IMG/VR virus record: IMGVR_UViG_3300045988_102975 | Span: 1 to 36,004 of that record | Reading direction: 5' to 3' (one strand) | Length of the DNA stretch: 36,004 nt | Source of the DNA: a virus | Program-made: the position numbers and the translations under genes | The notes under the pieces: model-generated | What the model was told of the DNA's origin: nothing | The model's input: the letters and a program-made list of their open reading frames with translations, nothing else | The model's database searches: none | In this document: one piece after another, positions 226 to 36,004 of the stretch | Numbering within the stretch: position 1 is the first letter of the stretch | Layout of the letters: each line of letters starts with the position of its first letter

Positions 226-1452
226 ATGGGGTCAATTACTTTTAAGGCCGTCGTTTCTGGCTTCCGGAAGGCTGACGGCACGCAGACTATCAGGATAAGG
301 GTGACGGCAAACAGGAAGGTCAAGTACATCTCGACGAATATCGCCGTCACGGAATCGCAGCTCACTCGCTCCGGAAACATACGCGACCGCGCCGTGCTGG
401 ACAAAACGGACCTTCTGATTGCCAAGATGCGTGCAGCGGCCTCGCGCATCGACACGTTCGCAGCCTCGCAGATGTCCATCGACGAGATAGTTCAGTTCAT
501 CGGCAAGGAGCAGGACGAAGTGTTCCGGCTGGACTTCTACCGCTTCGCCGACGAAATCATTGCCGGCAAGACTGCCGAGAACACGCGCTATTTTTATACG
601 AATGCAATGAAGGCACTGCGGACTTTTACAGGGAAGAACAGCATGGACATTTCCGAGATCACGTCCTCGTTCATGCGGAACTTCGAGTCCTGGCTTGTCG
701 CAAAATATGGAGCAGGCGCAAGATGCACAGGCGCATACCCTTCCTGCATCGGACACATACATGCACAGGCACGTCTTCGTTACAATAACGAGGAAACAGG
801 AGACGTCAAGATTCGAAACCCGTTCGCATATTTCCATCCGGCACGAACAAGGCCGGCACCGCACAGGAACGTCAGCAAAGACACAATTCAGACGATCATA
901 GACAAACGCGGGATGCTAACTAAAGAGATTGACAAAAAAGCTGCCGACATGTTCGTGCTGTCTTTCGGCCTGATGGGCATGAACGCCGTCGACCTGCACG
1001 GCTGCCTGCCGCCGAAAGGCGATATACTAATATATAACAGGACGAAAACAAAAGGAAGAAGAGACGACCGCGCTGAAATGCACGTCAAGATAGACAAGCG
1101 CATCCGTCCGTTGTTCGACAGCTGGATAGATCCGACAGGGAAGCGCGCCTTGCGGGTGTACAAGACAACTGCCAACACTTTCTCCGCCGAGCTTTCAATC
1201 GGTCTGCGACGGGCATGCAAGATCATGGGAATAACCGAGCCTCTGACGTTCTACTCCGCGCGCCACAGCTGGGCGACGCTGGCATACTCCGCCGGTGTGG
1301 ACAAGGCGGTCATCAATGACTGTCTCTGTCACATAGACAAGAATATGAGCATTACGGACATCTACATCGCAAAGGACTGGGAAGTCATGTGGAGGGCAAA
1401 TGAAAAGGTGCTCGACCTTTTCGACTGGTCGAGCACCCAAAAAGATAAATAA
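226..1452 (+). CDS. int: Tyrosine recombinase / phage integrase
   Basis: 408 aa. N-terminal arm-binding-like beta region (ITFKAVVSGFRKADGTQTIRIRV). C-terminal catalytic signature ARHSWAT (HxxR), CLCH and the DIYI tyrosine. Confidence 0.9.
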   Translation: MGSITFKAVVSGFRKADGTQTIRIRVTANRKVKYISTNIAVTESQLTRSGNIRDRAVLDKTDLLIAKMRAAASRIDTFAASQMSIDEIVQFIGKEQDEVFRLDFYRFADEIIAGKTAENTRYFYTNAMKALRTFTGKNSMDISEITSSFMRNFESWLVAKYGAGARCTGAYPSCIGHIHAQARLRYNNEETGDVKIRNPFAYFHPARTRPAPHRNVSKDTIQTIIDKRGMLTKEIDKKAADMFVLSFGLMGMNAVDLHGCLPPKGDILIYNRTKTKGRRDDRAEMHVKIDKRIRPLFDSWIDPTGKRALRVYKTTANTFSAELSIGLRRACKIMGITEPLTFYSARHSWATLAYSAGVDKAVINDCLCHIDKNMSITDIYIAKDWEVMWRANEKVLDLFDWSSTQKDK

Positions 1453-3063: not shown

Positions 3064-3444
3064 TTAATTATTCTTCACTAGCGCGCGGAGAAAATCTATC
3101 TGCGCCTCCTTGTCCTTCAGCTGTTCCCTCAGCATCTCGTTCTCCTTCTCCAGCACCGCCATCTGCGTAGCTGCGTCACCATCTTTCGGGCGATTGCCCG
3201 CCCTGTTCTGGTCTATCTGGACGTTCACATCGCCGGCGTTGTTATTGCCGGCGTAAATGCCGCCGTTAATCAACATCGAGGTATCCCACCCATGAGGATT
3301 GTTGAGTATCTTGGTTAGATTTTCTTTTGAAGGGTTGCCTGCCCCCTTAACCATTCTCGATATAAACGCCTCTGTCACACCGAGATACTTCGCTAAATCA
3401 ACCTGTTTTAGTTTGTTTCTATATAAGAATTCCTTGATATCCAT
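3064..3444 (-). CDS. XRE-family HTH repressor (CI-like) with a C-terminal coiled coil and no S24 peptidase domain
   Basis: 126 aa. N-terminus KLKQVDLAKYLGVTEAFISRMVKG is a classic HTH and the C-terminus is a leucine-zipper-like helix. Divergent from the early operon. Confidence 0.8.
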   Translation of the reverse strand: MDIKEFLYRNKLKQVDLAKYLGVTEAFISRMVKGAGNPSKENLTKILNNPHGWDTSMLINGGIYAGNNNAGDVNVQIDQNRAGNRPKDGDAATQMAVLEKENEMLREQLKDKEAQIDFLRALVKNN

Positions 3445-3507: not shown

Positions 3508-3520
3508 CTTTACCTTTGTG
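3508..3520 (+). promoter_or_regulatory. Operator-like site B, CTTTACCTTTGTG, overlapping the -7 box TACCTTTG (3511-3518) of a candidate rightward early promoter
   Basis: Near copy of site A. TACCTTTG fits TAnnTTTG. Confidence 0.4.
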
Positions 3521-3535
3521 TTTAGAAACCAACCC

Positions 3536-3551
3536 ACAAAGGGCAAAGGTA
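3536..3551 (-). promoter_or_regulatory. Operator-like site C (reverse complement CTTTGCCCTTTGT, 3536-3548), overlapping an inverted TACCTTTG box (3544-3551)
   Basis: Perfect 13-bp inverted repeat of site A. The second TAnnTTTG match is on the minus strand. Confidence 0.4.
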
Positions 3552-4572: not shown

Positions 4573-4844
4573 GCAGCATAGAGGTATTATCGCGCGATTA
4601 CGCACAGGTGAGCGAACTCATCGCCGGCGCCATCATCAAGAAGATGAAGCCGGTCGACGACGAGCTCAGCGAGAACGAGGCACAGAAGGCCTACGGCACC
4701 CGCTGGCTCAACCGGATGAGAGACGCAGGGCTTGCGGAGTTCGCGAGGATAGGGAACAAGAAGGTCTACAGCCGCCACCAGCTTGACTGCCTGAAGGCAG
4801 CGGAAAGGGAACAAGCGCGGCTGATAATGAAGGAAAAGAACTGA
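4569..4844 (+). CDS. Putative small DNA-binding protein (excisionase/MerR-like HTH)
   Basis: 91 aa. The segment AQKAYGTRWLNRMRDAGLAEFARIGNKKVYSRHQL resembles winged-HTH excisionase-type proteins by eye only. Confidence 0.4.
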   Translation: MSSIEVLSRDYAQVSELIAGAIIKKMKPVDDELSENEAQKAYGTRWLNRMRDAGLAEFARIGNKKVYSRHQLDCLKAAEREQARLIMKEKN

Positions 4845-4847
4845 ACC

Positions 4848-5027
4848 ATGGACGGGAAGATAACAGCGGCGGACGCACGTAGAATTGCGGAAGCAAGACA
4901 CATGCAGGTGGCGGATTTCAACGAGGCGTTTTTGGCCTCTTTCGACACCGAGGAGGCGCGAGACATCGCCGGCGGCATGATGCGTCACCAGTACCATCGA
5001 GAAATGTCCAGGGCAGGGCTACAATGA
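4848..5027 (+). CDS. Hypothetical small protein (59 aa, below the ORF-track cutoff)
   Basis: My own translation is MDGKITAADARRIAEARHMQVADFNEAF... It fills the gap between neighbours, and AAGGAGG follows it ahead of the next start. Confidence 0.4.
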   Translation: MDGKITAADARRIAEARHMQVADFNEAFLASFDTEEARDIAGGMMRHQYHREMSRAGLQ

Positions 5028-5037
5028 AGGAGGTCAC

Positions 5038-5232
5038 ATGCACAAGTTCGAGATTAACGACAAGGTCGTCTGGAAAACAGCAAACGGCACGGCGAGCGGC
5101 AGGGTCGTATGTTACGACACGCTGGGGCTCGGCTACATGATAGTAGCGCTGCCTAACAGCAGGAGGATGCTCGTGAACGAATGCAGCGCGACAGCCTGCA
5201 ATGACGCGACAACGGGAAATTATCATTGTTGA
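5038..5232 (+). CDS. Hypothetical protein
   Basis: 64-aa ORF preceded by AGGAGGT. Confidence 0.5.
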   Translation: MHKFEINDKVVWKTANGTASGRVVCYDTLGLGYMIVALPNSRRMLVNECSATACNDATTGNYHC

Positions 5233-5399
5233 CATAATAACAAAGTCCTTCGCAGCGATGCGCGGGCACGGAGACGCTGGGCAAGTGTGTAATATTGTGG
5301 TTATAATGGTTTTAGCATCAGTTTTCAGCCGGCGGTTCCGTCAAGCCCTTGCGGGGGTGACACCTTTCAGGGGCTCTAATTTCAAACGAAAAAACAAGT

Positions 5400-6167
5400 A
5401 TGGAAAACAAAACAAACTCAAAGACGCAAGGTGGAGTCTACCGGAAGATTCTGGAGCTTCAGAGGACAGTCAGGGCTCTGCTTCCCAACGCCAACGGAGG
5501 AGGCGACAGAAACTCATATAAGTACGTTTCTGGAGCTAAACTGCTGGGGTATCTGCGCCCGAAAATGGACAATCTGGGAATCATCCTGAAGCAGGAGATC
5601 GTGGAGGAGTCGCACGAGCGGATAGATTACGCCACGGCCTACGGACACAAGTCGGAGATGTTCACAGCGCTGAAGATGCGCTTCACCTGGATAGACGTCG
5701 AAACTGGCGAGCGTGACGAGAACGAATTTATCGCCTTCGGGCAGAACGGATGGGATAAGGGCCTGGGAAGCGCGCTGACATACGGCGAAAGGTATTTCCT
5801 GCTCAAGTTCTTCCACATCGCTACGGACGAGGACGATGTCGACGCTTTGCCTATCGAGGATGCCATGCCGGCGAACGTTCAGATGCCGCCGACACCAGCA
5901 CCGACACCACGGTCGCAGCCGGCTCCGGCCATTCCACAGGCACAGGCACCAGCACCAGTTCCAGCTCCGGCGCGAGGCAAACAGCAACCGATACAAGTGA
6001 AAGTGATACAAGCTGGCGACGACACCTACATGAAGCTGATCGCAAGAATCAACAAGGGGCAGCTCGACACTATCGACAAGGCTCTCAAAAGCGGTATGGT
6101 CTTTTCCGGCGAGGCGCTGGCAATGCTGGAGCAGGCACAACGAGATTTCAAACCAATTACAAAATAA
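5400..6167 (+). CDS. erf: ERF-family single-strand annealing recombinase
   Basis: 255 aa. The N-terminal region (YKYVSGAKLLGYLRPKMDNLGIILKQEI...GSALTYGERYFLLKFF) looks ERF-like. A Pro/Ala-rich linker follows. The gene lies next to Gp157-like and SSB genes. Confidence 0.7.
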   Translation: MENKTNSKTQGGVYRKILELQRTVRALLPNANGGGDRNSYKYVSGAKLLGYLRPKMDNLGIILKQEIVEESHERIDYATAYGHKSEMFTALKMRFTWIDVETGERDENEFIAFGQNGWDKGLGSALTYGERYFLLKFFHIATDEDDVDALPIEDAMPANVQMPPTPAPTPRSQPAPAIPQAQAPAPVPAPARGKQQPIQVKVIQAGDDTYMKLIARINKGQLDTIDKALKSGMVFSGEALAMLEQAQRDFKPITK

Positions 6168-6730: not shown

Positions 6731-7621
6731 ATGACATCAAGCAAGAGAGATTCATTCGTCTATCATCTCAGCTGGGAGGAAGTAATGGACAACTTGCCAG
6801 AGGAGGTCAGGGAGGAGGTGCGCGGCGGCATTATTGGGTATGCCCGCACGGGGGTCACCCCTGAACTGAAACCTTTGGCAAAAGTAGCCTTCGAGTTTGT
6901 GAAGAGAGACCTAGACAGGGATTTCCAACGCTATCAGGACATGGTTGCAAGTCGAAGCGAGAGCGGAAAGAAAAGCGCAGCAGCGAGAGAAGCAGCAAAA
7001 TCAACAAGTGTTGCTTGTGCTAAACAAAATCAGCAAAAGTCAGCAAAATCAACAAGTGTTGCTTGTGCTAAACAAGAGGCAACAAAAGCAACTGATTATG
7101 ATAATGATTATGATTATGTAACACATAGTGTGTGTGTTAATAGCGCGCAGGCGCGCGCGAGCACACCACCAGCACCACACACAGATTTCGAGTTTTTCTT
7201 CCCGACTTTTTGGAAAGCGAATATTTTCCAGCCGGCAGCAGAGACGCAGCGGTTCATAGACTACTACGAAGCATCAGGATGGGCGCTGGAGAAGGGAGAC
7301 CTTCTGGACAGCGACGCGAAAAGGCTAGCGAAGGCCAGGATATGGAAACCGAAGAAGGAGGGGGCGAGATTCCCGCCGAGATTTGCCGAGATTTGGTCAG
7401 AGCTCGCGGAACAGGCGCCTGACAACATCCGACGGCAGATGTACGAGGACGGCGTGGCCGTGCACATGGAGAGCAGGAGCGTCTGCACATCCATCGAGGT
7501 GACGAGGGCGGTGAAGCAATGGCTCATGGACCAATCAAACGCGGCGGCTAGGGAGCTGATTCTCGGGAAATGGCTACGCGGCAACAAAAACAAGCCGGTG
7601 CAATTCCCTGTATATGATTGA
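6731..7621 (+). CDS. Putative replication initiation / replisome-organiser protein
   Basis: 296 aa, between the recombinase module and SSB. Contains DNA iterons and an AT-rich tract internally, a lambda O-like arrangement. Confidence 0.4.
   Translation: MTSSKRDSFVYHLSWEEVMDNLPEEVREEVRGGIIGYARTGVTPELKPLAKVAFEFVKRDLDRDFQRYQDMVASRSESGKKSAAAREAAKSTSVACAKQNQQKSAKSTSVACAKQEATKATDYDNDYDYVTHSVCVNSAQARASTPPAPHTDFEFFFPTFWKANIFQPAAETQRFIDYYEASGWALEKGDLLDSDAKRLAKARIWKPKKEGARFPPRFAEIWSELAEQAPDNIRRQMYEDGVAVHMESRSVCTSIEVTRAVKQWLMDQSNAAARELILGKWLRGNKNKPVQFPVYD
6993..7075. repeat. Two perfect 35-bp direct repeats (6993-7027, 7041-7075), period 48 bp, with a partial third CAGCAAAA at 7031-7038: iteron-like
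   Basis: CAGCAAAATCAACAAGTGTTGCTTGTGCTAAACAA occurs twice. An AT-rich GATTATGA-type tract (7094-7118) and a GC palindrome (7143-7159) follow. Confidence 0.8.
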
Positions 7622-7648
7622 CAATTAAAAACATTAAAAAACAAAATT

Positions 7649-8134
7649 ATGGCAACACTAAACAAGGTGACACTCATCGGCTATGTAGGCAAAGAGCCGG
7701 ACGTGAGGTATCTGGAAACTCCGGAGCATCCGAAGGTGGCGCAGTTCTCGCTGGCCACGACCGAGCGGATGAAGTCAAAGGACGGGGAGGTCAAGGAATT
7801 GACCGAATGGCACAACATCGTGGCGTGGCGCGGTCTGGCGGATGTCACGGAAAAGTACATACGAAAGGGCATGCCGCTCTACGTGGAGGGCAGGCTGCGT
7901 ACCAGAAGCTGGGAATCGAACGGCAAGACGGCCTACCGCACGGAGATAGTTGCGGACAACATCCAGATGCTGGGCAACAAGTCAGATGGCGATAAACAGG
8001 CGGCTCCGGCTGCCGGACAATGGGTATCGCCGAAGCCGGCATATCAGCCGGCAGTTCCACAGGTTCCGGCATACGGCATGACAATGCCTGCGGCTCCGGT
8101 ATATGACGATCCGAAAGATGACTTGCCGTTCTGA
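7649..8134 (+). CDS. ssb: Single-stranded DNA-binding protein
   Basis: 161 aa. OB-fold signature (VTLIGYVGKEPDVRY...WHNIVAWRGLA...LYVEGRLRTRSWE), a Pro/Ala-rich tail and a C-terminal DDLPF acidic tip. Confidence 0.92.
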   Translation: MATLNKVTLIGYVGKEPDVRYLETPEHPKVAQFSLATTERMKSKDGEVKELTEWHNIVAWRGLADVTEKYIRKGMPLYVEGRLRTRSWESNGKTAYRTEIVADNIQMLGNKSDGDKQAAPAAGQWVSPKPAYQPAVPQVPAYGMTMPAAPVYDDPKDDLPF

Positions 8135-8402
8135 CACTTTGCAGCCGGCGGTGCTGACGGCAAGGGAATACCAGGAGATGCGGAGGTGCATCGAGAGGGT
8201 TCGGCGCCTTGGTATCAGAGACAACAAGCTGACGAATCTCGTCGACCGCATGTCGGTGACGCTAAAGAAAGGCGCGAGAAGGGCGCAGAAGTCCGCCACA
8301 ACGAAAGAGCGCACCATTGGCGGTGCAGTTGACCGCCAAAAGAAAAATAATCCGAATACAGCAGAAGAAATAGAAAATAACAATTCAAATTATGGAAAAT
8401 AA
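8103..8402 (+). CDS. Hypothetical basic protein (start uncertain; alternative ATG at 8178)
   Basis: 99-aa ORF overlapping the SSB 3' end by 32 nt. Confidence 0.4.
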   Translation: MTIRKMTCRSDTLQPAVLTAREYQEMRRCIERVRRLGIRDNKLTNLVDRMSVTLKKGARRAQKSATTKERTIGGAVDRQKKNNPNTAEEIENNNSNYGK

Positions 8403-8697: not shown

Positions 8698-9215
8698 AAA
8701 AGAAAATCACAAAGGAACAGGCAAAGGAGAACCTCAAGGCATTCCGCAAGGAACTCAAGGACAGGGCATGGAAGCGTGTCGCAGGATCGAAGATTCCCGA
8801 CTTGGTCAAGGTCGGCCTTCTGATGTCCAATGCCCTGTCTCTGCTGGCCGCGCAGATTGACGTGATGATTCGCGCGGAACTCAAGGCAGAGGGCGTGAAC
8901 GCAAAAACGAGCGGCGGAGAGGGGGACATAATCTGCGGCATGAAGAACTACGCGGAGAAGACAAAGGCTGCGGAGTATTGGTTTGAGCGCGACCTGAAGC
9001 CCTATATCGAGGGCTGCACGTTCGGCAGTTACGGCGTGAAGGCATACGATGACTTCAACCACAGCTCTGCGGAGGTCATACAGCTTCTGATGCTGTGCGT
9101 GGACAGGGGTGAAGTTGACGGCGGCATGGAAAAGGTCTTCCGGTCGCTGCAACGCCTGAAGAAGGGCACGCGGTTCTCCGACGAGGACATTTCGAGGTTT
9201 GATTTTAAGGAGTAG
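8694..9215 (+). CDS. Hypothetical protein
   Basis: 173-aa ORF with an ATGA overlap at the upstream gene. Confidence 0.55.
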   Translation: MKKKITKEQAKENLKAFRKELKDRAWKRVAGSKIPDLVKVGLLMSNALSLLAAQIDVMIRAELKAEGVNAKTSGGEGDIICGMKNYAEKTKAAEYWFERDLKPYIEGCTFGSYGVKAYDDFNHSSAEVIQLLMLCVDRGEVDGGMEKVFRSLQRLKKGTRFSDEDISRFDFKE

Positions 9216-9549: not shown

Positions 9550-9555
9550 AAAATT

Positions 9556-10227
9556 ATGAAATACGATTTTTCAAAATGCAATAATTTGCAATTCAAGGCG
9601 AAAGGTAATGAGGGAGAAGTAATGACAGGCTATCTAAAAGTTGCGAAAGAAGGAGAAGAATGTGTGGTGTATGTCTTCTCTGATAAGAAAGAAAATGAAG
9701 GTTTAGATAGCAGTCTTCAAATTGTAACAAGACACTACGATTGTTGCGAAATCATAGAAGATTTTAGCGAATGGGCGGAGAAGCACGATCTGGAAATAGT
9801 CCCGCGCGATCCGGAGACTTACTCCGACTGGAAGGTTGGTGACCGCGTCCGCTGTAAGTCCGGCGCCGAAGTTGTTTACGACATCGCCGCGAAACTTGGC
9901 GAAGTAGTGTTTCTGTCGAAAAATCACTCCCAAGTGTTAACATTACCAATCAACATATTAGTAAGAGATTCCAAACTCATCCTCACGGGCTACGAGCAGG
10001 AACTCCTGAAAGCACAGGAAAATAAAAAGTGCCCGTTTAAGGAGGGGGACAAGGTGTTAGTGAGAGATTCGGACACTTCTTGGAAGTTTGACGTATTTCA
10101 AAATTATGAAGAAAATGCATGTTATTCGTATGAATGTCTTGGCAGTGAATACGAGCAATGCATTCCTCTCAACGAGCACACGTGGAAGCTTTTGGGTACG
10201 ACGGACGAATACAAGGAGGAGGAATAA
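9556..10227 (+). CDS. Hypothetical protein
   Basis: 223-aa ORF in an AT-richer segment. Confidence 0.55.
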   Translation: MKYDFSKCNNLQFKAKGNEGEVMTGYLKVAKEGEECVVYVFSDKKENEGLDSSLQIVTRHYDCCEIIEDFSEWAEKHDLEIVPRDPETYSDWKVGDRVRCKSGAEVVYDIAAKLGEVVFLSKNHSQVLTLPINILVRDSKLILTGYEQELLKAQENKKCPFKEGDKVLVRDSDTSWKFDVFQNYEENACYSYECLGSEYEQCIPLNEHTWKLLGTTDEYKEEE

Positions 10228-10230
10228 ATC

Positions 10231-10467
10231 ATGGCAATGAAACTAAATGATTTTCTGCAGAAAGCCATCCTCTTCAGCGGGAAGACACAGGTGCAGGCGG
10301 CTCAAGAGGCGAAGATATGTCCTCCGACGTTCAATGAACTGTGTACTGGCAAAAGGGAAATAACTTACACATACGCAACGCGGCTTGAAAAGGTGTTCGG
10401 CATTCCGGCGCTGGTGTGGATGACGTGGCAAACAATGCAAACAATCGAAAAATCAAAAGGAAAATGA
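10231..10467 (+). CDS. HigA-like XRE-family HTH protein (antitoxin-type), with no partner toxin seen
   Basis: 78 aa. GKTQVQAAQEAKICPPTFNELCTGKREITYTYATRLEKVFGIPALVWMTWQ follows the HigA antidote pattern (HTH, then xRLxxxFGxxxxxWxxxQ). Confidence 0.6.
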   Translation: MAMKLNDFLQKAILFSGKTQVQAAQEAKICPPTFNELCTGKREITYTYATRLEKVFGIPALVWMTWQTMQTIEKSKGK

Positions 10468-10634
10468 ATTACAAAGTAACATTCAGAAGAAGCGTATTAG
10501 ACGCAACGATGACAACTTGTGTCGAGGCGAGGTCTGTGGGAGAGGCTGCCGAGGTAGTTAGACAACGTTACCACCTATGGCACAAGGACATTATATCGGT
10601 TGAATTAAAGAATAGAAATTATGGAACAATTTAG
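10464..10634 (+). CDS. Hypothetical protein (56 aa)
   Basis: ATGA overlap with the upstream stop codon. Uses the internal ATG of the 10416-10634 ORF. Confidence 0.4.
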   Translation: MNYKVTFRRSVLDATMTTCVEARSVGEAAEVVRQRYHLWHKDIISVELKNRNYGTI

Positions 10635-10848
10635 TTTAGAAGAATATTTCAAAAATCCAACCAGACCGATCGTCACAAGGGATGGCAGAAGCGCGAGGAT
10701 TATTTGCACTGACGCGAAAAGGGATTTTCCCTTGATAGCTTTAATTGAGAAAGACGATTATGCCCTTTTGTCCAAAGCCCTCAAAGATTGGGATGAGGAG
10801 AGCAAGGAGATATATGACAGAACTGAGCAACTCATAATGATGAAGTAA
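10621..10848 (+). CDS. Hypothetical protein
   Basis: 75-aa ORF. Confidence 0.5.
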   Translation: MEQFSLEEYFKNPTRPIVTRDGRSARIICTDAKRDFPLIALIEKDDYALLSKALKDWDEESKEIYDRTEQLIMMK

Positions 10849-10849
10849 T

Positions 10850-11104
10850 ATGACGGACATTCAACTTTACCAACATTGCGAGGAGTATATCCACGAGGTC
10901 CATAAATTCGATGGGATGTGTTTCGTTGAGCCCTACAATTACCAAGAGTTCGTGCAGGGGTTGGATATTCAGGACAGCGAGTCCGGCTTTGATGCCTACG
11001 TAAGTTCGGGAGGAACACTCTGCTTCAAGATTGACGAACTTGAGCCGTTCTTTAATGACTTCGATGCTTTCCGCGAGGCATTCATCAATAAATTAGGAAT
11101 CTAA
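10850..11104 (+). CDS. Hypothetical protein
   Basis: 84-aa ORF. Confidence 0.5.
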   Translation: MTDIQLYQHCEEYIHEVHKFDGMCFVEPYNYQEFVQGLDIQDSESGFDAYVSSGGTLCFKIDELEPFFNDFDAFREAFINKLGI

Positions 11105-11235
11105 TGTTTTACTATATTGATTGTGGAGCCGCAGAAAGAGTACGATGGGCTTCTGGAATATCCGTACAGCCGACTTATTTGTTTCAACGGCATCAGGGAC
11201 GTTATGGTAATCACAAAACTCAAGGAGGAAAAGAA

Positions 11236-11778
11236 ATGACAAATAAAACTCAAATGAAAACAGACAAACTTATACTCGATGCTTGTTGTGGCGGGAGAAT
11301 GTTCTACTTCGACAAGAACGATGACAGAGTATTATTTCAAGACATTCGCAGTTTTGAGACGACACTGTGTGACGGACGAAAATTTGAAATAAAGCCGGAT
11401 ATTCAAGCAGACTTTACAAACATGCCATACGAAGATGAAAGTTTTCAACTGGTCGTGTTCGACCCACCACATCTTTTAAGGAATGTTGGAAATTCAAAGT
11501 TTGCTGAAATATATGGAAGTCTTAATAAGAAAGCCAAACCAACCGGGTATCAGCAAATAAAGTATGGCGCACTTTATTCTGACTGGAGAGATATGCTGTC
11601 TAAAGGATTTTCGGAGTGCTTCAGAGTTTTGAAAAAAGGTGGATTTCTCATATTCAAATGGAACGAAACAGACATAAAGGTATCTGAAATTCTCAAACTA
11701 ACTCCGGAGAAACCCATATTCGGACATATATCCGGGAAACGGTCAAATACTCATTGGATATGTTTTATGAAAGGATGA
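11236..11778 (+). CDS. SAM-dependent (probable DNA) methyltransferase
   Basis: Motif I-like LDACCGG and motif IV-like VFDPPH. The ATG at 11236 is preceded by AAGGAGGA. The upstream part of the ORF looks non-coding. Confidence 0.6.
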   Translation: MTNKTQMKTDKLILDACCGGRMFYFDKNDDRVLFQDIRSFETTLCDGRKFEIKPDIQADFTNMPYEDESFQLVVFDPPHLLRNVGNSKFAEIYGSLNKKAKPTGYQQIKYGALYSDWRDMLSKGFSECFRVLKKGGFLIFKWNETDIKVSEILKLTPEKPIFGHISGKRSNTHWICFMKG

Positions 11779-11782
11779 AACC

Positions 11783-12136
11783 ATGAAAACACTTGATTTG
11801 GTTCTTAAAGGGAAATGGTACGATATGATTGCTTCCGGAGAAAAGACGGAGGAATACAGAGAGATTAAGCCATATTGGGAAAAACGCCTGTTAGACTATG
11901 AAGCCATAAAGAGAGATTATGAAATGCTTGTGTTTCGCAGGTTCCTGGTTGGCAAAGGTGTGGACCCGTTGGCATACCCACGAGGATTTACGCACGTTCG
12001 CTTTCATCGTGGTTATACAAAAATTACAATGACATTCGAAATTGACAGTATAACATTCGGCAACGGCAAAGAAGAATGGGGCGCAGAGCTGGGCAAAATG
12101 TATTTTGTTATCAAACTGAAAAGGAGGTCAGAATGA
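11783..12136 (+). CDS. ASCH-domain protein
   Basis: 117 aa. The N-terminus LKGKWYDMIASGEKTEEYREIKPYW is typical of ASCH-fold phage proteins. Confidence 0.6.
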   Translation: MKTLDLVLKGKWYDMIASGEKTEEYREIKPYWEKRLLDYEAIKRDYEMLVFRRFLVGKGVDPLAYPRGFTHVRFHRGYTKITMTFEIDSITFGNGKEEWGAELGKMYFVIKLKRRSE

Positions 12137-30995: not shown

Positions 30996-31154
30996 ATGAA
31001 CAGGATGAACATTGAAGGAGTGAGGGAGGGCTATGTGAGGCTCTCCTCACCTAACGGAATAGTCGACACGCGCAACGGCGATATTTTCGCGGAAGTAATC
31101 GTGAAGGCAAAGAGCGCGAAGTGGTTCAAGGAGGTAGAGGACAAGGAGGGATAA
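30996..31154 (+). CDS. Hypothetical small protein (52 aa, below the ORF-track cutoff)
   Basis: My own translation is MNRMNIEGVREGYVRLSSPNGIVDTRNG... It fills the gap before the holin gene. Confidence 0.35.
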   Translation: MNRMNIEGVREGYVRLSSPNGIVDTRNGDIFAEVIVKAKSAKWFKEVEDKEG

Positions 31155-31155
31155 G

Positions 31156-31623
31156 ATGGACGATATTATCACAACACTGAATCTCCCTGACGGAATGTGC
31201 AGGGGGATTATGATAGCCTTCATGCTCTGCGTGCTCGTTTGTGCTGCGGCGCTGATTGACATGTGGACAGGCATAGACGCAGCAAAGGCGAACAAGGAAA
31301 AGATAATGAGCCACGGATTGCGAAAGACCATCCGAAAGATTATCGACTATCTGCGGATAGTGTACTTCTTCCTGCTCATTGACATCTTGGGCGCTGTGTT
31401 CGTATGGTACAACCTGCCGTACTGCGCGATTCTTGCGACGCTGGGCGTTCTTCTCATTGAAGGGCGCTCCGTCATTGAGAACTCGCGGAAGAAGCAGAGC
31501 GCGGCTGGCAGAGTGGTGGATGCTGTTCAGGAGATTATCTCGTGCGTGGACAGCGAAAAGGCTCAAAGGATTATCGAGATGATTAAGGAAGAGCCGAAGC
31601 ACGGCATCGAAAAAAAGGAGTAA
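31156..31623 (+). CDS. Holin
   Basis: 155 aa with 3 hydrophobic helices. LIDMWTGIDAAKA and EGRSVIENS motifs typical of a widespread phage holin family. Lies upstream of the endolysin gene. Confidence 0.7.
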   Translation: MDDIITTLNLPDGMCRGIMIAFMLCVLVCAAALIDMWTGIDAAKANKEKIMSHGLRKTIRKIIDYLRIVYFFLLIDILGAVFVWYNLPYCAILATLGVLLIEGRSVIENSRKKQSAAGRVVDAVQEIISCVDSEKAQRIIEMIKEEPKHGIEKKE

Positions 31624-31628
31624 GTGAG

Positions 31629-32264
31629 ATGGAGATTACATGTGACACATTGCGGAAGATATACCCGCAGTCGAAGAGCATTGCAAGATATTGCGAAGCT
31701 CTGCACCAAGCCATGGCGGAATGCGGCATCGACACGGCTGCAAGGGCGCGTGCCTTCCTTGCACAGATAGGACACGAATCTGCGCAACTGAATCGCGTCG
31801 AGGAGAACTTGAACTACTCCGCGCAGGCATTGCGGACGGTCTTTCCTAGGTATTTCCGCACTCCGCAGGAGGCAAGCTCATACGCGCATCATCCGGAGAG
31901 GATAGCCAACCGCGTCTATGCAGAACGCATGGGCAACGGAAGCGAGGAGAGCGGTGACGGGTGGAAGTACAGAGGCCGCGGCCTGATTCAGATTACAGGA
32001 CGCGACAACTACGTGTCTATGTCGTCGCTGATGGGAAAGGACTTGACGGTCTGGCCCGATGCCCTGCTGATGCCTTTGTATGCCTGCCGCTCCGCTGCAT
32101 TATGGTGGAAGGCACACGGCCTTAATGCCCTTGCGGACAGACTATCGGGAGCCGGAGAGCGCAAGATCTTCGGGGCAATCACCAAGTGCGTGAACGGAGG
32201 ACTGAACGGCATTGACGACAGGTGGGCGATTTACCAAAGGGCGAAAAATAGTATTGTAGTCTAA
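31629..32264 (+). CDS. Endolysin, glycoside hydrolase family 19 (chitinase-like)
   Basis: 211 aa. AFLAQIGHESAQL, YRGRGLIQITGRDNY and INGGLNG motifs. Confidence 0.88.
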   Translation: MEITCDTLRKIYPQSKSIARYCEALHQAMAECGIDTAARARAFLAQIGHESAQLNRVEENLNYSAQALRTVFPRYFRTPQEASSYAHHPERIANRVYAERMGNGSEESGDGWKYRGRGLIQITGRDNYVSMSSLMGKDLTVWPDALLMPLYACRSAALWWKAHGLNALADRLSGAGERKIFGAITKCVNGGLNGIDDRWAIYQRAKNSIVV

Positions 32265-32278
32265 ATTGTAGTATAGGA

Positions 32279-32686
32279 ATGAAACGAATAATATTATTAG
32301 GCCTTGTTGTTTTGCTGCTCTGCTCGTGCGGAGCGGCAAGAGTGCAGACGCAGACGATATACGTCCGCGATACTACCTATATCAGCAAGGTGCAGGTCGA
32401 TTCGGTCTACAAGCGAGATTCTGTCTTCGTCAAAGAGAAAGGCGACACGATTTACAAGTATGTCGAGAGATACCTCGACAGGTACAAGTTCCTACGCGAC
32501 ACTATCTACCGCTACAAGGTAGATTCAGTCTATGTCGACAAGGAGCGCGTGGTCAAGGTTGAGAAACAACTGACGGCTTGGCAGCGGTTTAAGATGCGCG
32601 GCTTCTGGGTATTATTAGCCGCTATGGCGTGTTGGATAGCTTGGAAGAATAAGGCGCGCATTTTAGCCTTAATATTGCGGAGATAG
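32279..32686 (+). CDS. Lipoprotein with a C-terminal TM helix: unimolecular spanin candidate
   Basis: 135 aa. Lipobox-like LLLCSCG, a beta-rich repeat body (DSVY/DTIY) and the C-terminal TM segment FWVLLAAMACWIAW. Directly follows the endolysin gene. Confidence 0.5.
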   Translation: MKRIILLGLVVLLLCSCGAARVQTQTIYVRDTTYISKVQVDSVYKRDSVFVKEKGDTIYKYVERYLDRYKFLRDTIYRYKVDSVYVDKERVVKVEKQLTAWQRFKMRGFWVLLAAMACWIAWKNKARILALILRR

Positions 32687-32758
32687 ACACTATAAGGGCA
32701 AAAAAATGCCCCTGACTTGCAACTGCAAGATTCTAATAAGTAACCAGCTCAATAAGAA

Positions 32759-32817
32759 AACCCACAGGCACATTTACAGGGGCAAAGTTAAATGCCTCAT
32801 GTTTGTGCTTGTGGGTT
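32759..32817. other. Long two-tier hairpin in the 190-bp gap after the lysis cassette
   Basis: 13-bp outer stem AACCCACAGGCAC / GTGCTTGTGGGTT (one G.U pair) enclosing the inner stem GGGGCA/TGCCTC. Confidence 0.5.
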
Positions 32818-32876
32818 ATGTGGTATCTTATCAAGTCTGGCTGAGGCGAAAGTTAAACAAAAATTTTTACAAACGT

Positions 32877-33167
32877 ATGAGAAAATCAGAAATTTTCGCC
32901 GCAATTCTTTCAGACGTCTCCTCGGAGGCGGAAATTGACAGTGACCGGATATTGTCTTCAGAACGCAAGGAAGAGGTCGTGGACGCGCGTTATCTCGTTA
33001 TTTTCCTGTTGCTCGGCAACGGCTTCTATCCTGCAATGATTGCAGAGAGGATGGGCTTGTCGGCCCGTGCCGTCAGGAGCGCAATATCGGGGTTCGAGGC
33101 GCGCCTTGCGAACTCTGCGGGTCTCCGTCTTGTCTGCGAGCGGCTGTCTCGAAAGTGGCTTGCATAA
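32877..33167 (+). CDS. Small HTH protein resembling the DnaA C-terminal DNA-binding domain
   Basis: 96 aa from the internal ATG. The SSERKEEVVDARYLVIFLL...AERMGLSARAVRSAI pattern matches. The upstream part of the ORF looks non-coding. Confidence 0.4.
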   Translation: MRKSEIFAAILSDVSSEAEIDSDRILSSERKEEVVDARYLVIFLLLGNGFYPAMIAERMGLSARAVRSAISGFEARLANSAGLRLVCERLSRKWLA

Positions 33168-33315
33168 ATAAGGAAACAACGCGGAAGCAATAGACACTAA
33201 ACACGGAGCTAACTGCCTGAATATCAACAAAGATAGTAATATGTTTGCAGCACGATGTACACGTGCCAAGACCGCCGAAGGCAAAAGAGGCGGATAACAT
33301 TAAAACTATCGAATC

Positions 33316-33813
33316 ATGGACGATAACATGTTACCTTATATCCTTGACAGGAGAGACGATTGTCGCCACAGAGGCTCAAAGGGAATGGCTGCAACAGGCA
33401 TCGGCTTGGCTGCCGGACTTGGCGGAGGCGCATTGCTCTTCGCGATCGCCGGACTTTGGGGGCTGAACAAGGCTTCAGAGGCCAGAGCGGCAGGAACCAA
33501 TCATGGACTTGCAGGCGTCGCCACAGCATTGGCCGCACTCAACGGACACGTCGCCAACGAGCGCGCGTCACGCGAGGCTTGGCAGGCTGCGAACGCGCCT
33601 AGCATCCGCAACTATGTGGACGTGAGCAACACGCCTGTCGCTGCATCCACCAGCGTCTCAAACGCCGTGGCTGATGCCCTCGCATTGGCCGCAGCATTGA
33701 ACAACAACAGCAACCCGCTCAACAGCGCAATCGGTCAGGAGAGCTTCCTGCGCGTGCAGAGGTACTCCGCTCCGCAGCCGTGCGGATGCGACACATGCTC
33801 TTGCGGTAATTAA
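33316..33813 (+). CDS. Membrane-anchored Ala/Gly-rich protein with a Cys-rich C-terminus (CGCDTCSCGN)
   Basis: 165 aa with one Gly/Ala-rich TM helix near the N-terminus. No homology I can recognise. Confidence 0.5.
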   Translation: MDDNMLPYILDRRDDCRHRGSKGMAATGIGLAAGLGGGALLFAIAGLWGLNKASEARAAGTNHGLAGVATALAALNGHVANERASREAWQAANAPSIRNYVDVSNTPVAASTSVSNAVADALALAAALNNNSNPLNSAIGQESFLRVQRYSAPQPCGCDTCSCGN

Positions 33814-33824
33814 CACGAGAGGTT

Positions 33825-34160
33825 ATGGCCCAATTCTTCAGTAAACCACGCATCGACCTGTCGGTGCTCCGTCCGACTTCCAAGCTGTCGCTCAAGCTGA
33901 CTTGTTTGGCCGCCTGCGACAATGACGTGAAGACCGCTACGGAGCTGTACGACTTCATCGCCGGAGACATGGCGCTTCCTGACATCGACCCTGAAAGGCC
34001 GACGACGTTCGGCATGATAAAGCAGGGCGCGGAAGACATCTTCGGATGGGTCCAGGAACACAAGGACGAGCTGATGCAGGGCTACCAGCTGATAAGGGGA
34101 ATGAGGGGCGGCGCAACGGCGGCAACGCCTCCGGCAGCCCCTCCAATACCTGACATCTGA
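33825..34160 (+). CDS. Hypothetical protein
   Basis: 111-aa ORF with a Pro/Ala-rich C-terminus. Confidence 0.5.
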   Translation: MAQFFSKPRIDLSVLRPTSKLSLKLTCLAACDNDVKTATELYDFIAGDMALPDIDPERPTTFGMIKQGAEDIFGWVQEHKDELMQGYQLIRGMRGGATAATPPAAPPIPDI

Positions 34161-34348
34161 TGAAACCCTACAAGGCACAATTCTACGTCTACGCCGACAG
34201 CGAGCAGGAGGTCAGGGAGCTGGAAAAGGCTCTCCACGACTTCACGGCGGCGCAATACGGCAAAGGCGTGCTGGTCTCCGCCACGAAAATCACGGAGGCT
34301 GTCAGAAGGTTCGGCCATAACCTGCTCATAACACAATTCCTGAAATGA
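34160..34348 (+). CDS. Hypothetical protein
   Basis: 62-aa ORF with a 1-nt overlap with the upstream stop codon. Confidence 0.5.
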   Translation: MKPYKAQFYVYADSEQEVRELEKALHDFTAAQYGKGVLVSATKITEAVRRFGHNLLITQFLK

Positions 34349-34539
34349 GCGACGGACCTAAAAACATCTTCGAGCAGATACTCTACGGCCTTGAGGTCAC
34401 GAACAACAATATCGTGGAAATCTCAAAGGACATAGCAGCTCTGCTTGAGAGCATCGCCGAACTCAAGGCGGCGATTCTGCCGTCAACCGCACCGGACGGA
34501 ACGGACAAGGCATTTTCCGGTAACCAAGTAAATGAATAA
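34345..34539 (+). CDS. Hypothetical helical protein
   Basis: 64-aa ORF with an ATGA overlap. Confidence 0.5.
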   Translation: MSDGPKNIFEQILYGLEVTNNNIVEISKDIAALLESIAELKAAILPSTAPDGTDKAFSGNQVNE

Positions 34540-34954
34540 CACCATGGCAAAGAACGCAACCATAACTACGACCCTTGCAGCAGGTTCGGCTGCATCGCCT
34601 TACTACTTCATGGCCAACCTCACGAAGTCGCTGTGCGCTCCGTGCTGTGCCGCCACGCCGCCCGTATTCGCGCCGAAATTCTCCGTCGTGGGAATTTCCG
34701 CCGTCGGAACAGGGCAGTACGTCGCGACAATCAACGTCCAGGGGCTTATCACCTACGACCCGTGCGGAACAAACTGCTGCGCGAAGACGGAGCCGGTGAA
34801 CCAAAACTTCACCATTCCTTTCGCATCGGCAGCAGCGCCGACATCCGTGTCGGTCACCGCCGGAACAACGACGAACGCAATATCCGCACAGCCTTGCAAG
34901 GTATGCGGCCGCGTGTTCGTTTCGGAGACGCCTCTCGCGCTAGCAGTCGCATAG
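34532..34954 (+). CDS. Hypothetical Ala/Thr-rich protein with three Cys clusters (CAPCC, CGTNCC, CKVC); alternative start at 34544
   Basis: 140-aa ORF, beta-rich by composition, no signal peptide. Confidence 0.5.
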   Translation: MNNTMAKNATITTTLAAGSAASPYYFMANLTKSLCAPCCAATPPVFAPKFSVVGISAVGTGQYVATINVQGLITYDPCGTNCCAKTEPVNQNFTIPFASAAAPTSVSVTAGTTTNAISAQPCKVCGRVFVSETPLALAVA

Positions 34955-34958
34955 CGTC

Positions 34959-35261
34959 ATGAACTGGGTCGCAACGGCGCTGTTGGCGGCCTTCGCGGTC
35001 GCCCTGGCGCATCACCTCGGCCTAGTGGAGAAAGTGGCCGAAACGGCGCGGGAAATCGCCGGATGCTCACGATGCTCCGTGTTCTGGGCGGTCCTCTGCG
35101 TGCTTCTCTTTGAAGGGGTCAACGCCGTGGCCGCTTTCGGGGCGGCAATCATGCTGGCGTACCTCTCGGACTGGTTCGGCCTCGTTCTCTTTAAGGCCGC
35201 AAAACTATATGATAGGCTATGGCAAAGAATAAACAACAGGCGCAACGGACTGACGAACTGA
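34959..35261 (+). CDS. Small integral membrane protein (about 3 TM helices)
   Basis: 100 aa with hydrophobic segments and a CSRC motif. Confidence 0.55.
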   Translation: MNWVATALLAAFAVALAHHLGLVEKVAETAREIAGCSRCSVFWAVLCVLLFEGVNAVAAFGAAIMLAYLSDWFGLVLFKAAKLYDRLWQRINNRRNGLTN

Positions 35262-35359
35262 AGCCGCAGGCTCCGGCGGTCAAGACCATCCGGTACATGC
35301 CGGTGCCGAAGTTCGGCACGTGTCCGCAATGCGTCAAAACAAACACTACTACGACATGA
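35219..35359 (+). CDS. Possible 46-aa ORF (MAKNKQQAQRTDELKPQ...TCPQCVKTNTTTT)
   Basis: My own translation. It ends in an ATGA overlap with the next gene but overlaps the previous gene by 43 nt. Confidence 0.2.
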   Translation: MAKNKQQAQRTDELKPQAPAVKTIRYMPVPKFGTCPQCVKTNTTTT

Positions 35360-35826
35360 ACGATATAGCAACAAGGTTCATATCTATTCTCCGCGAGAGG
35401 ATAGACACGGAAGCAGGACAGGCCATCATCCTGAAAATGGTCGGGGAGATGGACAGCGAAAGGCTCAACATCATCGCCGACGAGTGCGAGGACATGGTCA
35501 AGTTCCAGAACTACCTGTCGGAAGATGAGGCTGACTGCATCGTCCGCAAGTTCGTTAACTTCGACGGATCTAAAGGTCCGCACTGGTCAGATCCGGACGC
35601 CGCATTCCGAGCTGTTCAGGCTCTTGGCATGACTTACGAGGAGGAGGGAGAGTTCAACCGCTGGGCTTTCTTCGCTGTCCTGAACATGGTCTGGTCGGAC
35701 GAGTGGGGCGTGCTTCACAACTACGTCGAGCAGGACCAGGAAGTCCGCGTATGCGCGGAACTTGCGCACGCACGTCTCGAAGACAGAGACAAGGTTTTCT
35801 CCGTACGAAAATATTTTAACGTCTAG
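35356..35826 (+). CDS. Hypothetical protein (alternative start at 35320)
   Basis: 156 aa from MNDIATRF... Acidic and helical, with the segment VNFDGSKGPHWSDPD. Confidence 0.5.
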   Translation: MNDIATRFISILRERIDTEAGQAIILKMVGEMDSERLNIIADECEDMVKFQNYLSEDEADCIVRKFVNFDGSKGPHWSDPDAAFRAVQALGMTYEEEGEFNRWAFFAVLNMVWSDEWGVLHNYVEQDQEVRVCAELAHARLEDRDKVFSVRKYFNV

Positions 35827-35916
35827 CCGAAAGTATCGGACAAATCACATATCTTTGCACCCGATTTGAGACGGCTGGGAAGCATGGATTTTTTCCGAAT
35901 TTTTACAAATGTTTAC

Positions 35917-36004
35917 AAATAGTTTAACAACGCAGAAATTTCTGCGTGAGATACTTGCTTGACATTCACTTAATTACAATATTAATAGTATAATGTGCAT
36001 ACTA
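35917..36004. repeat. Right copy of the 88-bp direct terminal repeat
   Basis: Identical to 1-88. Confidence 0.9.

Follow-up and report, generated by a model that had tools for sequence, protein, structure and literature searches.

Accessory genes of phages are known from hotspots for defence genes in P2-like phages and P4 satellites and from the morons of lambda and HK97, and superinfection exclusion is known from membrane-located proteins such as Imm and Sp of T4, SieA of P22 and gp15 of HK97. These are the closest described counterparts of the locus reported here, an operon of eight small genes (A to H) in the IMG/VR virus record IMGVR_UViG_3300045988_102975. The whole stretch of DNA that was analysed, hereafter the window, has 36,004 nucleotides (nt) and is a circularly closed phage contig. 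Judged by sequence comparison, the operon is regulated, under selection, co-linear, horizontally exchanged and replaceable, and it belongs to phages of Bacteroidales.

As a kind of locus, the block resembles phage hotspot cargo in its sequence features. It has a fixed position between conserved flanks and a candidate promoter of its own, close relatives carry unrelated alternative cargos, and Abi_2 and Tad2-like genes are inserted at the same place. Unlike typical hotspot cargo, however, it is an eight-gene operon of tiny proteins without an enzyme domain, comes with a presumed DnaA-like regulator of its own and a structured leader, also occurs in apparently virulent phages, and is far better conserved (protein E is at least 47% identical across its family). 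The exclusion proteins Imm/Sp, SieA and gp15 are comparable as small inner-membrane proteins of phages that are dispensable for growth and present in temperate as well as virulent phages, exclusion being a predicted function in the case of the block. They differ in that they consist of one or two genes, and no similarity to them was found in sequence or structure. As a system, the operon with its tiny proteins, its lack of an enzyme domain and its predicted new folds appears to be undescribed. Outside the DnaA-like regulator and a DUF7841 protein, the unit seems to be related to no described family, fold or RNA family, and a literature search found no paper mentioning DUF7841 or the cultured phages BS162P1 and C3_41T2LP, which carry the unit or its alternative form.

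Results

Genes A to H are conserved as a unit

Eight co-oriented open reading frames (ORFs) occupy positions 33316 to 35826 (Table 1). The original prediction, made from the window sequence alone, had described them as a block of translationally coupled genes for small Cys-rich or membrane proteins, and all ORFs and sequence features were found where it had placed them. This includes the tight joins. The stop codon of B and the start codon of C share one nucleotide (TGATG, 34160), ATGA overlaps are present at 34345 and 35356, D and E overlap by 8 nt, and gaps of 4 and 11 nt separate further genes. The guanine-cytosine content of the block is high, as had been noted, with 0.57 compared to ~0.52 for the whole window.

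Ratios of non-synonymous to synonymous substitution rates (dN/dS) between relatives at three distances ranged from 0.03 to 0.28 for A to H and the helix-turn-helix (HTH) gene upstream. The gene order HTH-A-B-C-D-E-F-G-H was invariant in more than 60 viral loci from IMG/VR and in 23 genome loci, so that the neighbourhood conservation proposed as a check was indeed observed. The fixed order holds down to 35–55% protein identity, also where the flanking tail or lysis genes are unrelated. Because of the purifying dN/dS values and the kept gene order, A to H can be taken, on sequence grounds, as real genes and more than chance ORFs. This applies equally to the 46-amino-acid (aa) CPQC peptide G, which had been listed as a possible product only and turned out to be a kept gene under purifying selection. 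The gene limits of the block were correct as predicted; the start of the unit was not, as the HTH gene, which opens the conserved unit, and the leader lie ahead of A.

The cassette A–G is exchanged behind a constant leader

A close relative of the window phage (L094; related loci are numbered in this manner) shares 95% nucleotide identity over the tail genes and 90% over window positions 31137–33304, which contain the lysis genes, the HTH gene and the leader. Similarity ends 12 nt short of the A start codon and is found again only within H (window 35374–35784). Between leader and H, L094 encodes a 273-aa protein with transmembrane (TM), helical and Cys-rich parts (phrog_16490) and a 157-aa protein (phrog_28898), both unrelated to A–G. 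A DNA-pattern scan for the second hairpin of the leader, with 80 of 109 stretches screened, gave 19 leaders that were genuine by covariance model. Eight of these are followed by A–G and H and ten by the alternative pair, with H detected in 8/10, while in the remaining one (L211) a deletion has joined the leader directly to the middle part of H. Close relatives thus have other content (L094 and nine loci) or none (the L211 deletion) at the same site, which is the behaviour of an accessory cassette.

Since A–G and the alternative set stand behind the same leader, the stable platform consists of the HTH gene, the promoter box and leader and usually H, with A–G as one of at least two cargos. Such comparisons characterise A–G as exchangeable accessory cargo in a variable region beside the att/integrase end.

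The alternative set was also found together with an H-like gene in crAss-like phages, namely gp03–gp01 of cr7_1 and gp031, gp029 and gp032 of cr125_1, where it adjoins a holin and a LysB/FtsL-like gene in the latter. In the plaque-forming Bacteroides uniformis phage C3_41T2LP, it is preceded by an HTH gene similar to DnaA domain IV (E 8e-20). This crAss-like set (phrog_16490, phrog_28898 and DUF7841) resembles A–H in its slot, its HTH gene and leader and its H family, as seen in L094 and the nine loci, and its first protein resembles A with a Gly-rich TM segment and a Cys/Gly/Tyr-rich end. It differs from A–G in having two to three genes instead of seven, and phrog_16490 is not detectably homologous to A; homology of the two membrane proteins was rejected with an hhalign probability of 1.5%. 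When cr125_1 (L085) and cr7_1 (L173) are translated with table 11, in-frame stops appear inside annotated coding sequences, which is consistent with stop-codon recoding in both phages.

The module occurs in temperate and apparently virulent phages of Bacteroidales

The cultured Bacteroides salyersiae phage BS162P1 (88.9 kb) has counterparts of HTH, A, B, C, E, F and H, arranged as in the window, with hidden Markov model (HMM) E-values from 5e-14 to 3e-45. BS162P1 was isolated from sewage and encodes its own DNA polymerase and helicase, and its module lies among small genes; no integrase was detected by tblastn in the record, which is partial. The module in this integrase-less phage suggests that the block is not specific to lysogeny. 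In 55–58-kb contigs, A and E of the module are 93–95% identical as proteins and the neighbouring and downstream genes are different. It is therefore doubtful that the block has long been resident in this phage lineage, as its composition had been taken to indicate, and it rather seems to be exchanged as a cassette.

In the window and in most clades (L034, L015, L058, L064, L076 and L089–L092), the module directly follows the holin-endolysin-spanin genes, in agreement with the predicted location after lysis genes and a small HTH gene. This location is not general, however, as in other phages the genes ahead of the module are not lysis genes but VRR-NUC or RusA-type genes, and RecT in some. A holin-like gene follows the module in L056, and in many relatives the module lies between the lysis genes and a tyrosine integrase. 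From its distribution, the module appears to be confined to phages of Bacteroidales and to be independent of lysogeny. The earlier assignment as conversion, exclusion or defence cargo hence fits in so far as the block is accessory cargo in an att-side variable region, but its link to lysogeny was not confirmed in view of BS162P1.

Mobile or conflict-related genes were found inserted in or next to the module. L056 carries Abi_2 (E 3.7e-38) between HTH and A and KilA-N (E 8.9e-23) between C and D (4671–5543, minus strand, and 7251–8180, plus strand), and L090 has a Tad2-like gene (E 2.7e-21) just upstream of the module at 7227–7517. In L211 (reverse complement, ~10850–11867), a two-gene minus-strand insertion separates the HTH gene from the leader and looks, by eye, like a DUF4065-type antitoxin plus partner. 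A nucleotide search of 50,697 phage records gave no match. Likewise, tblastn of E and A against phage records found nothing and only H was matched, in BS162P1 and crAss-like phages.

A presumed DnaA-like regulator gene, a candidate promoter box and a structured leader precede A

The HTH protein has a conserved start MRKSEIF at 32877, and not at the listed ORF start 32706, which gives a length of ~96 aa and not 153 aa. A profile of 14 orthologues aligned with DnaA domain IV in the PDB over residues 6–90, that is, over its whole length with the DnaA of Aquifex (2hcb/1l8q, E 1e-6) and Thermotoga (2z4r, E 6.5e-6). It is unlike DnaA in being a stand-alone domain of 96 aa without an AAA+ module, no DnaA boxes were identified nearby, and the single sequence scored below the Pfam threshold for Bac_DnaA_C (19.6 bits, cut-off 31.5). 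A sigma-r4 match was sub-threshold as well. The gene is the first of the module in 69 loci with dN/dS values of 0.09–0.15, and its product is presumably the transcription regulator of the A–H operon.

Several clades have short direct repeats with a phasing of 11–12 nt (or 18–22 nt) between the HTH stop codon and the promoter box (L065 6598–6630, L068 6564–6585, L081 664–739, L064 6545–6585, L034 5838–5863 and L012 3552–3603). Their sequence differs from clade to clade. They may be operator sites of the DnaA-IV-like protein; such repeats were not detected in the window between 33140 and 33260.

The block had been proposed to have its own promoter at a TAnnTTTG box (TATGTTTG), which is of the Bacteroides −7 type. 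The box is present. Its TTTG core has kept its position in 15 of 16 aligned relatives, and 26 of 48 distinct loci have the full TAnnTTTG. The bare motif, on the other hand, is no signal by itself, as it is not rare in the window (22 found versus 14 expected, not significant alone). The box thus counts as evidence because of its conserved position and not because the motif is present.

The leader is composed of hairpin 1 (~33250–33266), a CCAAG/U sequence and hairpin 2 (~33272–33293, CCGCC-GAAGGCAAAAGA-GGCGG), and the conserved element as a whole can be described as the TTTG core, hairpin 1, CCAAU and hairpin 2 (CCGCC-GAAGGnnnAAGA-GGCGG). RNAalifold predicted ten pairs, eight of them with compensatory changes. 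The covariance model (R1) placed a single copy in each locus, in every case immediately ahead of the cassette on its 5' side, and this included loci that were not used in building it. Among 30 distinct sequences, 90.6% of the cells were paired compared to 70.7% after shuffling, with 48 versus 15.5 double changes; these pairing counts lean towards structure, the alignment having been fitted to the model. Slid controls were paired to 31–51%. The minimum free energy structure of the window leader contains both hairpins (z = −2.24). No Rfam match was obtained at E up to 10 in 32600–36004, with one chance match elsewhere. The leader is a candidate for a new cis-regulatory RNA.

The products A to G have no recognisable relatives

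All products were scanned against Pfam, PHROGs, PADLOC-DB 2.0 and NCBIfam, and profiles of A, B, C, E, F and H were compared with the PDB. The lack of any recognisable match, as originally stated, was reproduced for A–G in Pfam, annotated PHROGs, NCBIfam, PADLOC and the PDB; H is a DUF7841 protein. The defence models of PADLOC-DB 2.0 gave chance-level scores only (LeoBC, E 0.011 for A; Csx18, E 0.012 for the neighbouring lipoprotein), and Foldseek searches with the models of E (PDB and BFVD) and H (PDB) gave nothing below E 0.03. B to H contain no lipobox or signal peptide and match no lysis or structural family of PHROGs.

A has a Gly-zipper-like TM segment at residues ~26–50, followed by a helical Ala-rich domain. 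It ends with CGCDTCSCGN, in which the motif CGCD(T/S)C is invariant across the family (C156, C158 and C161), and its dN/dS is 0.04–0.09. In the alignment of the family, read by eye, the C-terminal side of the TM segment is more basic, which would place the large domain of A and its Cys motifs in the cytoplasm. This large domain, the CxxC loop of F and the soluble proteins are all inferred to be cytoplasmic.

B possesses a conserved TSKxxLK motif, an FGW motif and a C-terminal PPIP tail. Its dN/dS is 0.06–0.07 and the BS162P1 orthologue was found with E 3e-45; compared with the PDB, it yielded only coiled-coil and helical-bundle noise. C (dN/dS 0.04–0.15) had no match in the PDB profile search. 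D is the least conserved member (dN/dS 0.17–0.28), and its counterpart in BS162P1 was not detected by HMM.

E is the most conserved member with a dN/dS of 0.03. C35, C39 and C122 are invariant and additional Cys residues are located at 78–83. Its 117 homologue clusters are all hypothetical, and the identity is 50–67% across distant phages. A deep profile search retrieved only 78 matches among 1.84 billion representative proteins. The AlphaFold model, with a predicted local distance difference test (pLDDT) score of 91, has eight strands, several of them 14–16 residues long. Foldseek found no structural neighbour of this model in the PDB (best E 0.045, TM-score 0.25) and none in BFVD; weak matches to secretin, tail-protein and HIV-matrix structures were rejected as noise (TM-score 0.25–0.30). 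Three long immunoglobulin (Ig)-repeat proteins are among the 78 matches and there is weak contact to Invasin_D3/Big_1 and CFAP65 Ig domains, which hints at a beta-sandwich-like character of E.

F contains an invariant His (H19) and a CxxC motif (C36 and C39; CSRC) ahead of its second TM segment. Its dN/dS is 0.12–0.15 and the PDB profile search gave no match. The first 43 nt of G lie within the end of F, in the −1 frame, and ATGA is shared with the start of H. Its motif MAKxKQ...Y[KR]P[IVL]P[KR]F..GCxNC is conserved in ~75 loci, with a dN/dS of 0.19–0.25 between close relatives. A fusion of F and G or a programmed frameshift (a 141-aa ORF, L062 ~8710–8745) was rejected, as this ORF spans a run of N, i.e. 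a scaffold gap.

H passes the curated threshold of Pfam PF25223 (DUF7841; E 4.7e-9, 37.0 bits, cut-off 25.2), a family without assigned function, and ~50 close homologues carry only this domain. Its model, built from close homologues only, is all helical (pLDDT 90) and has no neighbour in the PDB (best E 0.38). H is the constant last gene of the operon and is kept when A–G is swapped (L094 and the other loci with the alternative set); it is missing from the L012/L089 clade. Homologues are present in crAss-like phages, and their label "RNA polymerase sigma factor/ubiquitin-like" was rejected because there is neither a Pfam sigma match nor a fold neighbour in the PDB.

The window is a temperate tailed phage with the block next to its att site

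The gene content of the window is that of a temperate tailed phage, and bases 1–86 repeat 35919–36004 as an 86-nt direct repeat. Besides the genes in Table 1, it encodes ERF, Gp157, SSB, VRR-NUC, DUF6291, a terminase, a portal protein, an HK97-type capsid and long tail genes. In related phages, the slot of the 135-aa lipoprotein holds other proteins (DUF6808 or different lipoproteins).

An integrated copy of the phage was found in a scaffold of Bacteroides sp. CAG:709 (L062). Its homology to the window ends at window ~36003 (= ~85), so that attP should be at ~80–86. The crossover was placed at ...GTGCATACT (window versus L062 9490–9500), and the host sequence to its right resembles, by eye, the N-terminus of a MATE-type transporter. 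In this prophage, the block lies at the end opposite the integrase and next to attR, just as an att-distal location had been predicted. Related copies are present in assemblies of Alistipes, Cryptobacteroides, Muribaculaceae, Tidjanibacter and other Bacteroidales.

A strong terminator-like hairpin is located at 121–160 (AAACGGCTATTTAG...CTAAATAGCCGTTTTT) on the integrase side of attP. It had been regarded as the next terminator of the block, from which it becomes separated by attP on integration. Lying beyond the crossover, it could terminate A–H only in the circular or replicating form and not in the prophage. A second TAnnTTTG box (TATCTTTG) is found at 35850–35857 on the plus strand, 24 nt past the stop codon of H and pointing to attP. 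After integration, this box would point out of the prophage into the neighbouring host gene; the motif alone is not significant. Two back-to-back TACCTTTG boxes (3511–3518, plus strand, and 3544–3551, minus strand) lie between the cI-type HTH gene and the rightward genes and look like the divergent promoter pair of a lysogeny switch.

In L094, the integrase gene (9552–10859, minus strand) directly follows H on the opposite strand and aligns only partly to that of the window, with 71–79% nucleotide identity. This differing placement and the partial alignment suggest that the att/int module was also rearranged or exchanged between phages that are otherwise 90–95% identical.

Table 1. Features of the window discussed in the text (aa, amino acids; TM, transmembrane).
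Feature	Position	Strand	Description
Tyrosine integrase	226–1452	+	
cI-type HTH gene	3064–3444	leftward	
Holin	31156–31623		holin-like protein with 3 TM segments
Endolysin	31629–32264		GH19 endolysin
Lipoprotein	32279–32686		135 aa, lipobox LLLCSC, beta-rich middle, C-terminal TM segment; unimolecular-spanin architecture
HTH gene (presumed regulator)	32877–33167	+	~96 aa, stand-alone DnaA-domain-IV-like protein
Promoter box	33240–33247	+	TAnnTTTG, Bacteroides-type −7; candidate
Leader	33244–33311	+	two-hairpin 5' leader of A–H; covariation, predicted
A	33316–33813	+	165-aa bitopic membrane protein
B	33825–34160	+	111-aa acidic soluble protein
C	34160–34348	+	62-aa basic alpha/beta protein; start shares one base with B stop
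D	34345–34539	+	64-aa acidic protein, probably coiled-coil; ATGA overlap with C
E	34532–34954	+	140-aa all-beta protein; CAPCC, CGTNCC and CKVC clusters
F	34959–35261	+	100-aa membrane protein, 3 TM segments, basic C-terminus
G	35219–35359	+	46-aa basic peptide, C-terminal CxxC (CPQC)
H	35356–35826	+	156-aa acidic (pI 4.5) all-helical DUF7841 protein

Discussion

As a holin, a GH19 endolysin and a u-spanin-type gene already form a complete set upstream and full head, tail and replication modules are found in other parts of the window, the block does not appear to serve a core function. The reading preferred here, with a probability of roughly 0.4, is that the operon carries accessory cargo for a Cys- or metal-held complex at the cytoplasmic membrane that acts in conflict between phages or between phage and host. 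The fixed platform would comprise the DnaA-domain-IV-like protein, the host-type promoter box, the leader and usually H, and the cassette A–G between leader and H would supply two membrane anchors (A and F), the soluble proteins B, C, D and G and the beta-rich E. Translational coupling suggests a fixed stoichiometry, so that the products may assemble in fixed proportions on the cytoplasmic face of the inner membrane. The two membrane anchors and the invariant Cys/His motifs in four subunits point to a membrane complex with shared metal sites. It would be held by the CxCxxC motif of A, the Cys cluster of E, the His and CxxC of F and the CxxC of G, which would most likely act as shared zinc sites. 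A Cys- or metal-stabilised membrane complex, as already suggested from the paired cysteines, is consistent with the invariant Cys residues in A, E, F and G and the TM segments in A and F. Finally, the exchange of the cassette and the conflict genes around it suggest a role in superinfection exclusion, abortive infection or other defence, counter-defence or host takeover at the membrane, and the complex would not be needed for virion building, lysis or replication.

Several observations weigh against this proposal. No component matches a known family for defence, anti-defence, exclusion or toxins, with nothing significant in PADLOC, and eight small proteins without an enzyme or nucleotide-binding domain are unlike known defence systems. 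Strong purifying selection and the 50–67% identity of E seem to fit a housekeeping interaction better than an arms race. In addition, the module directly follows the lysis genes in most clades, and the H homologue of cr125_1 lies beside holin- and spanin-like genes. The alternative cassette could also supply the same essential function, and the swap thus leaves dispensability unproven.

The main rival explanation, which is rather unlikely, builds on this location and regards the block as an accessory part of lysis or egress, for instance as a timing regulator or as a complex that disrupts the envelope together with holin, endolysin and spanin. The order of genes in the window and most clades, the holin-like gene behind the module in L056 and, in cr125_1, the H homologue and the alternative membrane protein next to the holin and the LysB/FtsL-like gene would all agree with it. 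A is also i-spanin-like in outline with its N-terminal TM segment, helical domain and C-terminal cysteines. However, the charge distribution suggests that the large domain of A is cytoplasmic, and no lipoprotein partner is found among B to H. The muralytic enzyme, the holin and the spanin-type function are all encoded upstream, the last by the unimolecular-spanin-type lipoprotein, and the lysis set is hence complete already. Elsewhere, the module follows VRR-NUC, RusA or recombination genes, far from lysis genes, and with its own regulator and promoter the operon is not simply part of a late transcript.

Strict lysogenic conversion, in which genes expressed from the prophage alter the surface or fitness of the lysogen and are irrelevant to lytic growth, is unlikely. 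It would explain the host-type promoter box, the position at the prophage end opposite the integrase and next to attR, the frequent location between lysis genes and tyrosine integrase in relatives, the membrane proteins and the variable hotspot. Against it speak the full module in the sewage phage BS162P1, with its polymerase and helicase and no integrase found by tblastn in the partial record, and the occurrence of platform plus alternative cassette in crAss-like phages and the plaque-forming C3_41T2LP.

It is quite improbable that A–G are virion-associated, for example as decoration proteins, ejection proteins or channel formers whose genes lie apart from the main structural block. Phages whose tail genes are 95% identical have another set in place of A–G or have lost it, and the modules of BS162P1 and C3_41T2LP lie among small early or recombination genes. 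The own HTH regulator and host-type promoter and the lack of a structural PHROG match also speak against it. E is a small all-beta protein with weak contact to Ig-like repeat domains, and ejection proteins often have hydrophobic segments, which would both suit such a role. The alternative membrane protein is annotated as "spike/outer capsid/viral fiber" in crAss-like records, but these labels are annotations by the depositors and no structural evidence was seen behind them.

The likeness of the HTH protein to DnaA domain IV raises the idea of a membrane-tethering or replication-organising module, in which this protein binds phage DNA, the hairpins are a DNA element and A–G are the anchor. The location after VRR-NUC, RusA or RecT genes in several phages and the repeats with 11–12-nt phasing between HTH stop and promoter in several relatives would be in line with it. 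Such repeats were not detected in the window, though, the replication set of the window (ERF, SSB, Gp157 and DUF6291) lies elsewhere, the hairpins are placed exactly between promoter box and first start codon like a 5' untranslated region, and the cassette is exchangeable. The idea is accordingly very improbable. A locus for ribosomally synthesised and post-translationally modified peptides or bacteriocins with A, E and G as Cys-rich precursors is effectively refuted, in spite of the Cys-rich C-termini of A and G and a sub-threshold LanM match (NCBIfam E 0.022, 12.5 bits, cut-off 304), by the lack of a modifying enzyme, protease or exporter in the block or in more than 60 related loci, by the absence of a leader-core architecture in products that are conserved along their whole length, and by matches far below the cut-offs.

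The preferred reading of A–G as cargo for a membrane complex in conflict can be extended to a more specific picture, which is doubtful and put forward only tentatively. A–G may be an undescribed multi-subunit machine of the inner membrane, cross-linked by zinc or Cys around the new beta-rich fold of E and controlled by a DnaA-domain-IV regulator and a new RNA leader. Unrelated temperate and virulent Bacteroidales phages would deploy it for conflict or host takeover, and it would be exchanged with a second system that is shared with crAss-like phages.

In the human gut virome, phages of Bacteroidales, including crAss-like phages, are dominant, and a function is assigned to only a minority of their genes. 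The unit described here is compact and testable and combines regulator, promoter and RNA leader with exchangeable cargo. It is found repeatedly in temperate prophages and large virulent phages, and crAss-like phages carry the alternative form. The cultured phages BS162P1 and C3_41T2LP and the genome-sequenced lysogen lineage of Bacteroides sp. CAG:709 make experiments feasible. The leader, as a candidate new cis-regulatory RNA, would be useful independent of the function of the cargo, and the slot from leader to H may serve as a marker for finding further accessory cargo in the genomes of gut phages. If a role in exclusion, defence or counter-defence is true, the operon would represent a new class of system, without enzyme domains and with new folds, in hosts whose conflict with phages is poorly understood.

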